A DNA stretch of 64,000 nucleotides. Origin: an uncultured bacterium (GTDB lineage: Bacteria > Patescibacteriota > Minisyncoccia > Phycocordibacterales > Phycocordibacteraceae). Position numbers and translations under genes: made by a program. Below the pieces are notes generated by a model. The model was given only the letters and a program-made list of their open reading frames with translations. It was not told the DNA's origin and made no database searches. The DNA is taken from positions 400,682 through 464,681 of the forward strand of contig CAVXAH010000001.1 of NCBI GenBank assembly GCA_963759775.1. Direction: 5' to 3'. Of this stretch, positions 31,248 to 51,863 are shown in pieces; the first letter of the stretch is position 1; every line of letters starts with the position of its first letter.

Positions 31248-32168
31248 TCACTCTACAATCTGATTTGGGTCTGAAAGGACAATTTCAGCGCGTCCTTCGT
31301 AGGAAACGATCTTTCCGGTGAGCGTTACTTCTTTGCCGGAGTATTGGGAAAGTGAACCAAATTGCTTTACATCGTCTGCGAAAATGACGGCAGAGAAGGG
31401 ACAGGTTTTGTAGTTCGTGCAGTAGTCAAAAAAGACCGTGCCGCTTTTGGAAGTGTAGGCGCGAAGGACCCTTCCGCGCACGGAGGCGTATTCGCCGATG
31501 TGTTTCGGGGTTTCAGTAAAATCGTACACGCCACCTGAAACACTCGCGGCGGCTCCTGCCGCCGCGTTTCCTTTATAGGCTTCAAGAAGCCGTTTCAAAA
31601 TATTCTCGTATGCCTGTCGAAGCGCTGGGTCGGTGCCGATCTGGAGAATTTCGTCGTTAATGGTCGTCGCGGACTTGGTCCAGTTGTAGCTTCCAAATGC
31701 ATAGGCCTGTTCGGTCACAAGAAGCTTCAAGTGCATGATGCCATTTCCGCTTGCGTGGCGTTCCGTGACTATAGGAATTCCTGCAGAGCGCAATTTCTCG
31801 GTGATAGGCGAGCCGTAGCTATTTGAGCTCTGCTCGCTGTCCATAATTCCTTTCACCACGACGCCGCGCTTATGCGCGGCGACAAGAGCATCCGCAACGT
31901 TGCTCAAAGTGAAGGTGTAAATCGCAAAATAAATATGGTCCTCGGCTTCGTTAATGAGCGCGATGAGCTCTTGGTCGTTTTGTTTTGCATCAAGGCTATA
32001 AATAACGCGCGTGGTGCCCGCCTTGGGGGCATCAACCGTCTGAACGGGGATGCTTACTGCGGCGCCGGCTACCGGCGCCGCTTCTCTTGCCCCGGTCGTG
32101 TATCCGACACCTCCTGCGGCTATCGCAAGTACGAGCGCGACTACCGCGCGCATAAGTTTCAATTTCAT
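31248..32168 (-). CDS. membrane-anchored/secreted phospholipase-D-family nuclease with C-terminal OB-fold-like domain
   Basis: N-terminal helix MKLKLMRAVVALVLAIAAGGVG. HKD motif GIMHLKLLVTEQAYAFGSYNWTKSATTINDE. C-terminus ...GEYASVRGRVLRAYTSKSGTVFFDYC...GKEVTLTGKIVSYEGRAEIVL. Confidence 0.8.
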   Translation of the reverse strand: MKLKLMRAVVALVLAIAAGGVGYTTGAREAAPVAGAAVSIPVQTVDAPKAGTTRVIYSLDAKQNDQELIALINEAEDHIYFAIYTFTLSNVADALVAAHKRGVVVKGIMDSEQSSNSYGSPITEKLRSAGIPIVTERHASGNGIMHLKLLVTEQAYAFGSYNWTKSATTINDEILQIGTDPALRQAYENILKRLLEAYKGNAAAGAAASVSGGVYDFTETPKHIGEYASVRGRVLRAYTSKSGTVFFDYCTNYKTCPFSAVIFADDVKQFGSLSQYSGKEVTLTGKIVSYEGRAEIVLSDPNQIVE

Positions 32169-32297
32169 CCCGTTAGAGGTAGGAAATCGTCAGACGATTT
32201 CCGTACAATTATGAACGAACGTATTAAATTTTGACCATCTCATTCAAGTAATGGTAGCACCGACTGATCTGCGGTTTTCACCTCTAACGGGATTCAT
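32164..32297 (-). mobile_element. MITE-like TIR element, family 1, copy 1 (123 bp) with flanking ATGAA direct repeats, sitting on the start codon of the PLD nuclease gene
   Basis: Minus strand reads TATGAT-GTGCCC-ATGAAT | CCCGTTAGAGGT ... GGAAATCG-TCTGA-CGATTTCC-T-ACCTCTAACGGG | ATGAAA (gene start). Plus-strand TIRs at 32169-32180 and 32280-32291. Confidence 0.6.
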
Positions 32298-32323
32298 GGG
32301 CACATCATAGCGTATCCAAATGG

Positions 32324-32338
32324 TATGTTGCTTGCATG
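32324..32338 (+). promoter_or_regulatory. extended -10 (TGgTATGTT) + 6 nt + ATG (leaderless layout)
   Basis: TATGTT 32324-32329, GCTTGC, ATG 32336. Confidence 0.55.
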
Positions 32339-35209: not shown

Positions 35210-35707
35210 ACTAAGCGTTTCGCCACCGTCGCCATACTCCTGCTCGCATTTTTAGGTCTCGCCGACTCGGTATACCTCACCCAAAGCGAGACAAATGGTT
35301 CGCCACTCCTCTGTGATATTAATTCGCTGACGGGCTGCAACATTGTCGCGCAAAGCCCGTACTCTCAATTTCTCGGCATCCCACTTGCCGAGTACGGTCT
35401 TCTTTTTTACGTCGTGCTATTCGTTATCGCCGCACTTGAACTTGCAGTTCTGCACCATCTTGTCCGACGTGTGATGCAAGGACTTGCGATGGCAGGTTTT
35501 CTCATGTCCGCATATTTTGTCGCTATCCAACTCTTCGTTATCAAAGCACTCTGCATCTACTGCTTGCTCTCCGCTTTTATTGTTTTATGTATTTTCTTTC
35601 TGGCGTTCTTGCTCGAACCAATACGAAAGAGTCCGCCTCAAACGGGAAGTCCCGTTCCGCCACCAGCCTCACCTCGTCCACGGTTTTCAATGCCACCCTC
35701 GGCGTAA
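35207..35707 (+). CDS. vitamin K epoxide reductase (VKOR) family membrane protein
   Basis: ...LADSVYLT...LLCDINSLTGCNIV...; TM helices; CIYC redox motif; Pro-rich tail. Confidence 0.8.
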   Translation: MTKRFATVAILLLAFLGLADSVYLTQSETNGSPLLCDINSLTGCNIVAQSPYSQFLGIPLAEYGLLFYVVLFVIAALELAVLHHLVRRVMQGLAMAGFLMSAYFVAIQLFVIKALCIYCLLSAFIVLCIFFLAFLLEPIRKSPPQTGSPVPPPASPRPRFSMPPSA

Positions 35708-51703: not shown

Positions 51704-51736
51704 TTATTTTTTGTGGGAGTATACTAGATTCACGGT

Positions 51737-51863
51737 ATGAATCCCGTTAGAGGTAAACTACAGGCGAGTTAATGATATTCTTAATGAGATGATAAGGTCG
51801 AATTTATTACTTTCGTTAATAATCGTACGGAAATCTCAGATTTCCTACCTCTAACGGGATGAA
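51737..51863 (+). mobile_element. MITE-like TIR element, family 1, copy 2 (116 bp) with flanking ATGAA direct repeats, sitting on the pilB start codon
   Basis: TAGATT-CACGGT-ATGAAT | CCCGTTAGAGGT (51743-54) ... GGAAATC-TCA-GATTTCC (51829-45) T ACCTCTAACGGG (51847-58) | ATGAAC (pilB). Confidence 0.6.

Follow-up and report, generated by a model that had tools for sequence, protein, structure and literature searches.

What kind of sequence lies on the start codon of a nuclease gene in an uncultured member of the Patescibacteriota, and carries a copy of that codon at either end? The gene encodes a phospholipase D (PLD)-like nuclease on the minus strand of a 64,000-nt stretch of contig CAVXAH010000001.1, referred to here as the window. 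A sequence-only reading of this DNA had described positions 32163-32309, at the front of the gene, as a second, inverted and diverged copy of a repeat element that also occurs at pilB. The stretch in front of the nuclease gene is very probably a small, non-coding mobile DNA element that was inserted on the start codon and duplicated it. Positions 32169-32291 most likely represent a non-autonomous cut-and-paste transposon, or MITE (miniature inverted-repeat transposable element), of a family spread through the Patescibacteria. The element is short and non-coding, it is bounded by 13-bp terminal inverted repeats and a target duplication that varies in sequence, and it occurs as dispersed copies for which empty sites are found.

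Structure of the element and its target duplication

Direct reading of the minus strand between 32163 and 32309 recovered every part of the element as it had been described (Table 1). The exact 12-mer CCCGTTAGAGGT occurs four times in the window, as two inverted pairs that enclose 123 and 116 bp, the lengths previously given. Such a 12-mer is expected approximately 0.008 times by chance in 128 kb (two strands), and the two pairs are therefore not due to chance. One further match to the repeat, with two mismatches (CCCGTTTGAGGC, 35635-35646), has no partner and is at chance level for the search.

Pairwise alignment of the two copies showed homology from the upstream ATGAAT exactly through the downstream ATGAA, with unrelated sequence outside. 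The right-hand 50 nt or so are near-identical and the left interior is poorly conserved. The same gene-proximal ~50 nt are the only part conserved outside the repeats in an alignment of the family to which both copies belong (family A). The subterminal hairpin and the ATGAA on both flanks are present in both window copies as claimed, and the CATAAT box of the nuclease copy does occupy the position equivalent to AATAAT in the pilB copy. Approximately 70 nt of interior separate CCCGTTAGAGGT from CATAAT at the nuclease site, where the element scores 69 bits against a profile built from 26 copies. The pilB copy has the same orientation to its gene, which encodes a PilB/GspE ATPase.

The terminal inverted repeats had been described as identical and 12 bp long. 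The exact 12-mer is indeed present in both copies, but the true repeat is 13 nt (TCCCGTTAGAGGT / ACCTCTAACGGGA). In 41 of 43 copies a T adjoins the 12-mer on its left side and an A on its right side, with C and G instead in the other two, and the inverted repeat thus extends by one position; with the terminal T (32292) and A (32168) included, the nuclease-site element measures 125 bp. Within family A, CCCGTTAGAGGT is exact in 21 of 26 copies and carries a single substitution in the remaining five.

Table 1. Coordinates of the features of the two family-A copies in the window and their surroundings.
Feature	Position	Strand	Basis
Host -10 box TATGAT, context outside the element; nuclease gene formerly leaderless	32304..32309	-	direct reading, empty orthologues
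Spacer GTGCCC between -10 box and ATGAA	32298..32303	-	direct reading
Upstream ATGAA copy, original start codon position, 6 nt after host -10	32293..32297	-	direct reading
Left terminal inverted repeat TCCCGTTAGAGGT	32280..32292	-	12-mer CCCGTTAGAGGT at 32291-32280, preceded by T at 32292
Family-A element, CCCG to CGGG, 123 bp	32169..32291	-	direct reading, pairwise alignment
CATAAT, -10-like, facing the gene, 5 nt before hairpin	32208..32213	-	alignment, promoter scan
Subterminal hairpin GGAAATCG-TCTGA-CGATTTCC, then T at 32181	32182..32202	-	stem conserved, loop variable among copies
Right terminal inverted repeat ACCTCTAACGGGA; final A is the A of the nuclease start codon	32168..32180	-	12-mer ACCTCTAACGGG at 32180-32169
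Downstream ATGAA copy, working nuclease ORF start	32164..32168	-	N-terminus aligns with orthologues
PLD-like nuclease gene (PF13091), 306 aa, hydrophobic N-terminus, opens ATGAAATTG	31248..32168	-	open reading frame (ORF) list, Pfam
Family-A sister, 116 bp, on pilB start codon	51743..51858	+	exact 12-mer pair, alignment, Pfam
ATGAA flanking the pilB copy	51737-51741 and 51859-51863	+	direct reading
AATAAT, -10-like, pilB copy	51818-51823	+	
Hairpin, pilB copy	51829-51845	+	

A perfect direct repeat flanks the element over 4 nt in 35 of 43 copies and over 5 nt in 33 of 43. TGAA is the usual 4-mer, and altogether seven different 4-mers are found duplicated, the left copy matching the right. The flanks co-vary on both sides with the gene (ATGGA, ATGCA(A), ATGAG, ATGTT and ACGAA, besides the common ATGAA). 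Of the ATGAA proposed earlier as the target, ATG is the constant part but GAA is not, since the first four of these variants are matched on both sides. Two copies discriminate between 4 and 5 nt, those at loci L025 (GTGAA/ATGAA) and L109 (ATAAA/GTAAA), and both favour the shorter length. The duplication is best modelled as 4 bp, and the A of the downstream ATG is then probably contributed by the element. A 2-bp duplication of AT or GA combined with a 14-bp repeat was rejected, since it takes 4-5 nt to account for the flank pairs ATGTT/ATGTT, ATGAG/ATGAG and ACGAA/ACGAA.

Distribution of the family and evidence for mobility

A 20-mer from the right end of the element, with no flanking sequence included, was searched against one genome per species. 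It matched 26 loci, all in Patescibacteria (Kaiserbacteria, Paceibacteria, Nomurabacteria, other Parcubacteria and assemblies labelled Saccharibacteria). An ATG lies directly 3' of the element at every one of these loci, and each ATG opens an ORF. A wider tabulation comprised 43 copies from approximately 20 Patescibacteria genomes and several phage contigs, with at least 10 copies in the loci examined from one assembled genome. Related families share a common core (CCCGTTAGA ... TCTAACGGG) and have unrelated interiors and lengths of 60-116 bp. On the phage contigs, one of which is a Mu-like phage and whose genes use Shine-Dalgarno sequences, elements of 41-81 bp are bounded by the same core. 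Copy lengths overall range from 41 to 123 bp, and the sole ORFs in them are upstream ORFs of 4-42 aa with stops that are not conserved. The family-A 20-mer was absent from the viral contigs searched, a BLAST search against cultured phages returned nothing, and a profile search of the 679 kb of sequence examined gave no further family-A relics.

The short relatives on phage contigs lie at L111:10175-10215, L112:759-820, L118:3246-3323, L119:4676-4756 and L115:5858-5930. Two of them are at the starts of radical-SAM genes, one is on a GTG start and two are within the Mu-like phage; one is intergenic, with TCAA duplicated. A degenerate palindrome of about 40 bp (CCCAGTTAGAAAG...CTTCTAACGGG; L028:3025-3075) lies between infC and rpmI, 16 nt before the rpmI start, and is probably a relic of the same superfamily.

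The nuclease gene provides a direct comparison of occupied and empty sites. Three orthologues (L027, L028 and L030), with 73-77% protein identity, read TATACT-N6-ATGAA(A/T) with no insert, whereas the window reads TATGAT-N6-ATGAA-[element]-ATGAA. Three other orthologues (L120, L121 and L122) carry different element types at the same start codon, namely a 78-bp short-family element, a family-B element and a decayed copy, the last being the relic at L122. This comparison of upstream regions indicates that the nuclease-site insertion is specific to the lineage of the window and that at least three different families have hit the nuclease start codon in different lineages.

The pilB site is occupied in the window, at L010 and at L018 and is empty in approximately 25 metagenomic orthologues. 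Three of the empty genomes (L031, L032 and L056) branch between the occupied ones in a PilB tree, and simple vertical inheritance of the pilB insertion was rejected, as occupied and empty genomes are interleaved. A comparison of element and host trees was uninformative, the element interiors being star-like. Upstream of a solute-binding protein gene (L005:3575-3810), elements of two different families stand in tandem, in the arrangement ATGAA-[family B]-ATGAA-[family A]-ATGAA. The mobile repeat family suggested by the sequence-only reading is borne out by the empty orthologous sites, the tandem insertion and the different families at the nuclease start codon, and these comparisons indicate that the element is, or was, mobile.

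Position at start codons and fixed orientation

The right junction coincides with the start codon of an ORF in 37 of 43 copies. The remaining six include five that are no more than 25 nt from such a codon. These six comprise copies at L012 (7 nt upstream of the start codon), L119 (22 nt upstream, just before the Shine-Dalgarno sequence), L109 (10 nt inside the ORF, with a new in-frame ATG within the element) and L025 (in frame within a pilin leader), the family-B copy at L005, which is directly upstream of the family-A copy abutting the start codon, and one at L117 whose position is ambiguous. None of the family-A copies is off a start codon. Orientation to the gene is identical throughout the copies on start codons, and in all 28 family-A copies, two cut off by contig ends included. 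The earlier proposal of specificity for ATGAA or for the start-codon region was thus supported by the 26 flank-free matches running into ATG and by the wider tabulation, in which most copies abut an ORF start.

The availability of target sites bears on how this pattern arose. In the window, ATGAA occurs at 21 ORF starts, at approximately 10 truly intergenic sites and 100 times inside ORFs; the figures for TGAA are 21, 88 and 553. If all ORF-disrupting insertions were lost, the share of copies on start codons would be expected at only ~70% for an ATGAA target and ~20% for TGAA, against all of the family-A copies as observed. The start-codon pattern is compatible either with targeting by the enzyme or with survival only at start codons.

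Under the preferred reading, that of a MITE, copies would persist only where the duplication spares the signals on both sides and the element restores expression, in a setting of tight intergenic regions, leaderless mRNAs and initiation without Shine-Dalgarno sequences. The alternative that survives best is a mobile element that actively targets initiation regions, recognizing melted DNA or a bound factor, with little part for selection. The superfamily would then home to translation starts in bacteria of the candidate phyla radiation and in phages and act as a portable gene-start cassette, a proposal that we regard as tentative and rather doubtful. It would account for the exact placement on start codons, for the independent families on the nuclease codon and for the fact that pilB, the solute-binding protein gene, hpf and ftsW have each been hit in several genomes. 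The phage copies, whose hosts use Shine-Dalgarno sequences, carry their own AAGGAG near the right end, and variants with C...G ends yield a GTG start. However, about half of the occupied sites have no nearby -10 box and several are operon-internal ATGA overlaps, and promoter melting is therefore not a general cue. The same pattern could also result from selection in a genome whose intergenic regions are tight, and we know of no mechanism or enzyme for active targeting of start codons. Were homing true, the terminal A or G together with the target TG would rebuild ATG or GTG, and the right repeat would supply frame-specific stops. The gene-proximal half would suit the host, with a -10 box and 5' hairpin for leaderless genes or AAGGAG in the phages of Shine-Dalgarno-using hosts, and the same genes would be rewired repeatedly, as by the families at the nuclease start codon.

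Two of the copies away from start codons are read in frame. The element at L109:926-1002, on an AT-rich Patescibacteria contig, is a 77-bp member with C...G ends and TAAA duplicated. An ATG inside it keeps its frame across the right repeat (..ISNGV..) and on into the remainder of the gene, and the element may now supply the start codon. The element at L025:1551-1610 is a 60-bp GC-rich member with the repeat CCCGTTAGAGGC, in frame in the leader of a type IV pilin on the opposite strand. Insertion and duplication together amount to 66 nt, the product reads MAAPRGF-IPLEARSTRAAGARRALPLTG-FTLIE, and the G/F prepilin cleavage motif is rebuilt.

Host initiation signals and expression of the downstream gene

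Shine-Dalgarno-like motifs precede 8 of 72 genes in the window, which is at background (10.5% of random positions). The motif TAnnnT stands exactly 6 nt before the ATG of 12 of the 72 genes, approximately 20-fold above the 0.6 expected. Together these figures for the genes of the window (e.g. 33253, 36881, 49091 and 53706) lead to the conclusion that the host uses leaderless mRNAs and initiation without Shine-Dalgarno pairing, and leaderless mRNAs seem to be the norm for the first genes of operons. The sequence-only reading had assigned to both copies a shared context of a -10 box, 6 nt and ATG. This context is present, but it belongs to the leaderless promoters of the host, occurs at empty sites and is no part of the element. 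The assignment holds for TATGAT at the nuclease gene and needs refining for pilB, where the hexamer at 6 nt is TAGATT (51725-51730) and TATACT is 11 nt away.

If the element were absent, the nuclease gene and the divergent gene at 32336 (+) would be separated by a 39-bp spacer with two -10 boxes set back to back (TATGAT and TATGTT), both of them 6 nt from the respective ATG. Insertion on the start codon left both promoters and both ORFs intact, and the nuclease promoter now lies 128 bp from its ORF. As the host is largely leaderless and does not use Shine-Dalgarno sequences, the insertion separates the nuclease gene from its promoter. At operon-internal sites, the duplicated TGAA keeps the overlapping stop (ATGA) of the upstream gene.

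The gene-proximal half of the element probably re-drives expression. In 19 of 26 copies the hairpin is preceded, at a distance of 5-8 nt, by a NATAAT or TAAAAT box with at least five of six positions matching, and a promoter scan of the nuclease copy picks TGGTCA-18-CATAAT. RNA folding predicts that a transcript beginning at the hairpin has a 5'-terminal stem-loop and an unstructured start codon, whereas in read-through RNA the AUG is buried at the base of a 14-bp helix. An internal promoter of this kind would explain the fixed orientation.

The proposed sequence of events may be put as follows. A transposase acting in trans would cut TNAA-type sites with a stagger of 4 bp, as piggyBac/IS1380 do, and could also carry out precise excision. 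With the element in place, the old ATGAA still lies 6 nt behind the host -10 box, and the new ATGAA, its A probably the last base of the element, heads the intact ORF. The -10-like box (CATAAT at the nuclease gene) would drive a transcript that begins at the 5'-terminal hairpin, the usual 6-nt spacing of the host placing the transcription start at the first or second G of the hairpin. The resulting mRNA would have a 5' hairpin, an unstructured 13-nt leader and then the AUG.

A further route concerns ORFs that bridge the element from the duplicated upstream ATG. The right repeat contains stops in two frames (..CTC TAA CGGG ATG and ..GGA TGA), and a bridging ORF to these stops is open in 13 of 32 copies against 4.4 expected (permutation test); both short phage copies have complete ones. 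In this subset, translation could run from the upstream ATG to a TAA 4 nt before the real ATG or to a TGA overlapping it, and ribosomes could pass to the real start. The upstream ORF is closed by a stop after 11 codons in one window copy and after 17 in the other, and the route is therefore inapplicable to them. A conserved upstream peptide (MNPVRG...) was rejected as a candidate, since it is merely the translated repeat, its stops vary and both window copies end early.

These features also bear on the possibility, which we consider unlikely, that the insert is neutralized at the level of RNA or translation and not by a promoter of its own. At the RNA level, an RNase III- or RNase Z-like activity would cleave the foot of the long stem and so give a near-leaderless mRNA from the AUG. 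At the level of translation, ribosomes starting at the duplicated upstream AUG would read through the element or skip it, and would then initiate anew at the real AUG. Such a reading agrees with a leaderless host without Shine-Dalgarno signals, with the position of the AUG, exactly at the foot of a 13-14 bp helix that stacks on the hairpin, with the stop codons in the right repeat and with the approximately three-fold enrichment of bridging ORFs. However, in 19 of 32 copies, the window pair among them, the upstream ORF ends short of the real ATG by 20-110 nt, and variants of the left arm with A-C mismatches are tolerated. Moreover, no copy is found deep inside an ORF, although general bypassing or splicing would permit this.

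Evidence against the proposed transposon and less probable alternatives

Several observations weigh against a MITE as described above. Neither an autonomous element nor a transposase was found in the 679 kb of sequence examined; no pair of repeats 0.2-4 kb apart encloses a transposase in the 640 kb of loci scanned, and the sole transposase seen is of Mu type, in one phage contig. There is no near-identical pair of copies that would speak for recent movement, the best interior identity being 88% (L003 and L006, within one genome). The ends are almost invariant and the interiors are at 45-80% identity, which continued selection on the ends fits better than simple decay. The copies at L006 and L017 require a 5-nt duplication and not one of 4 nt, and those at L003, L011 and L022 have no clean duplication. 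A symmetric transposase alone would not yield a single orientation, and selection or some asymmetry must therefore lie behind it. Among the family-A copies the -10-like box is as a rule without the first T of TAnnnT, 7 of 26 have a poor box and there is no conserved -35 box.

An origin in the single-strand (HUH/Y1) transposons, such as those of IS200/IS605 or REP type, is very unlikely. Elements of this type insert 3' of a fixed tetra- or pentanucleotide, have a subterminal hairpin and are inherently fixed in orientation. The fixed orientation to an asymmetric target, the one conserved subterminal hairpin 13 nt from the right end and the clean empty sites, which would fit precise excision, are all in keeping with them. 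In contrast, HUH/Y1 families make no target duplication and have a right flank that does not copy the left, whereas the flanks here co-vary (ATGTT/ATGTT, ATGAG/ATGAG and ACGAA/ACGAA). The 13-bp terminal inverted repeats are perfect, and the left end has no hairpin to match that of the right, although such elements have hairpins at both ends.

The least probable of the alternatives, to which we give very little credence, is a cis-regulatory RNA leader passed on by vertical descent (for instance a riboswitch or a 5' untranslated region that binds a protein) with the inverted repeats as its closing helix: the strongly stable multi-branch fold (z = -5.7), the constant sense orientation directly upstream of an ORF and the conservation of the ends across distant genomes would suit it, but the consensus fold of 26 copies has no helix in the interior and retains just the terminal stem and the hairpin, neither of these contains compensatory pairs within the family, conservation being at the sequence level, both strands fold equally, the downstream genes are functionally unrelated, orthologous sites are empty or held by other families, the flanks are direct repeats that co-vary with the second codon of the gene itself, and Rfam gives no match even at E = 10. 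The downstream genes identified by Pfam (L9, L24, SecE, RRF, HPF, FtsW, Def, solute-binding protein, PilB and the nuclease, whose PF13091 domain upholds the PLD part of its earlier label) are unrelated housekeeping genes, which indicates that they do not form a regulon. Rfam searches gave no match at the element, either at gathering thresholds across the whole window, where only a tRNA-Ser was found elsewhere, or at E <= 10 for the pilB copy, and ARAGORN detected no tRNA-like gene at the element.

Other identities were considered and rejected. A riboswitch or other curated structured RNA fails for want of covariation, of a related set of downstream genes and of a match to a curated model. An integron attC site would have RYYYAAC at the 5' side and GTTRRRY at the 3' side, and here the order is reversed (GTTAGAG ... 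CTCTAAC) and the flanks are duplicated. A Correia- or ERIC-type MITE is excluded by a duplication of TGAA type, not TA, and by the lack of an Rfam match.

Relation to known elements

The element is in kind a bacterial MITE, set apart by the sequence that it duplicates, its exact position and its fixed orientation. The Correia/NEMIS elements of Neisseria, the enterobacterial ERIC/IRU and the pneumococcal RUP are MITEs that are co-transcribed with genes, and outward promoters and effects on mRNA processing have been reported for them. Like these, the element described here is in the range of 100-150 bp, non-coding and present in multiple copies, with terminal inverted repeats that fold into a long hairpin, short target duplications and a location near the 5' ends of genes. 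Their duplication, however, is TA and they are found throughout intergenic DNA in either orientation, whereas the present family duplicates TGAA-type 4-mers exactly at the start codon and with a single orientation. There is no relation in sequence, and the present family has Patescibacteria and phages as its hosts.

The Rickettsia palindromic elements are typically found inside ORFs and are not tied to start codons. They resemble the present family in being small, mobile and palindromic and in being able to lie within coding sequence and be translated in frame; the pilin-leader copy of 60 bp and the N-terminal extensions ending in ..ISNG-M are the examples here, in-frame copies being rare exceptions in this family. 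The promoter-stem-loop cassettes of T4-type phages are likewise short repeated modules at gene starts with expression signals, but they have neither terminal inverted repeats nor a target duplication. Mitochondrial byp elements are mobile inserts with flanking repeats that give matching codons on either side. Unlike the present elements, they are inside ORFs and are skipped by the ribosome, and skipping is not indicated here.

In anatomy, the nearest parallel is to the piggyBac superfamily and its prokaryotic relatives, the IS1380 family. IS1380 elements duplicate 4-5 bp, and CC(C) stands at the extreme tips in these groups. piggyBac duplicates TTAA, with TAAA and TCAA variants reported (PMC10813416). 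The likeness to piggyBac/IS1380 consists of a 4-bp duplication of TNAA type, empty sites without a footprint, which would fit precise excision, and 13-bp terminal repeats with CCC near the tip (CCCTAGAAAGATA in piggyBac, (T)CCCGTTAGAAATA / (T)CCCGTTAGAGGTA here). The differences are that the usual target here is TGAA and not TTAA, and that an extra T/A pair stands outside the CCC (tips T-CCC...GGG-A). The resemblance is one of anatomy only, no transposase having been found in the sequence examined.

Implications for start-site annotation

A search of the literature by topic and by repeat sequence gave no description of the element and only irrelevant primer matches. To our knowledge, transposons that choose gene starts are rare, and no report was found of an element lying on, and duplicating, the start codon itself. 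Both the start-codon habit and the recurrence at the same genes are unusual.

Translation initiation in the candidate phyla radiation is poorly understood, as Shine-Dalgarno signals are lacking and many mRNAs are leaderless. If confirmed, the element would serve as a natural indicator of where true start codons lie in these genomes and would offer a handle on the starts of transcription and translation in these organisms. It would also mean that selfish DNA, active now or until recently, persists in very small and streamlined genomes, which tolerate it at one type of site only, and the ends of the element might serve for precise DNA insertion at gene starts.

The element already appears as a source of annotation errors, in the form of N-terminal extensions or shortened starts. 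In the three nuclease orthologues with other element types (P0009, P0115 and P0018; L120, L121 and L122, ~1130-1250), the public gene calls begin inside the element and the proteins carry spurious N-terminal extensions that end in ..ISNG-M, which is the right repeat read in frame. These cases indicate a systematic misannotation of start sites caused by the element. The nuclease of the window is itself represented in the database by a protein of 301 aa (P0001), called five residues short.

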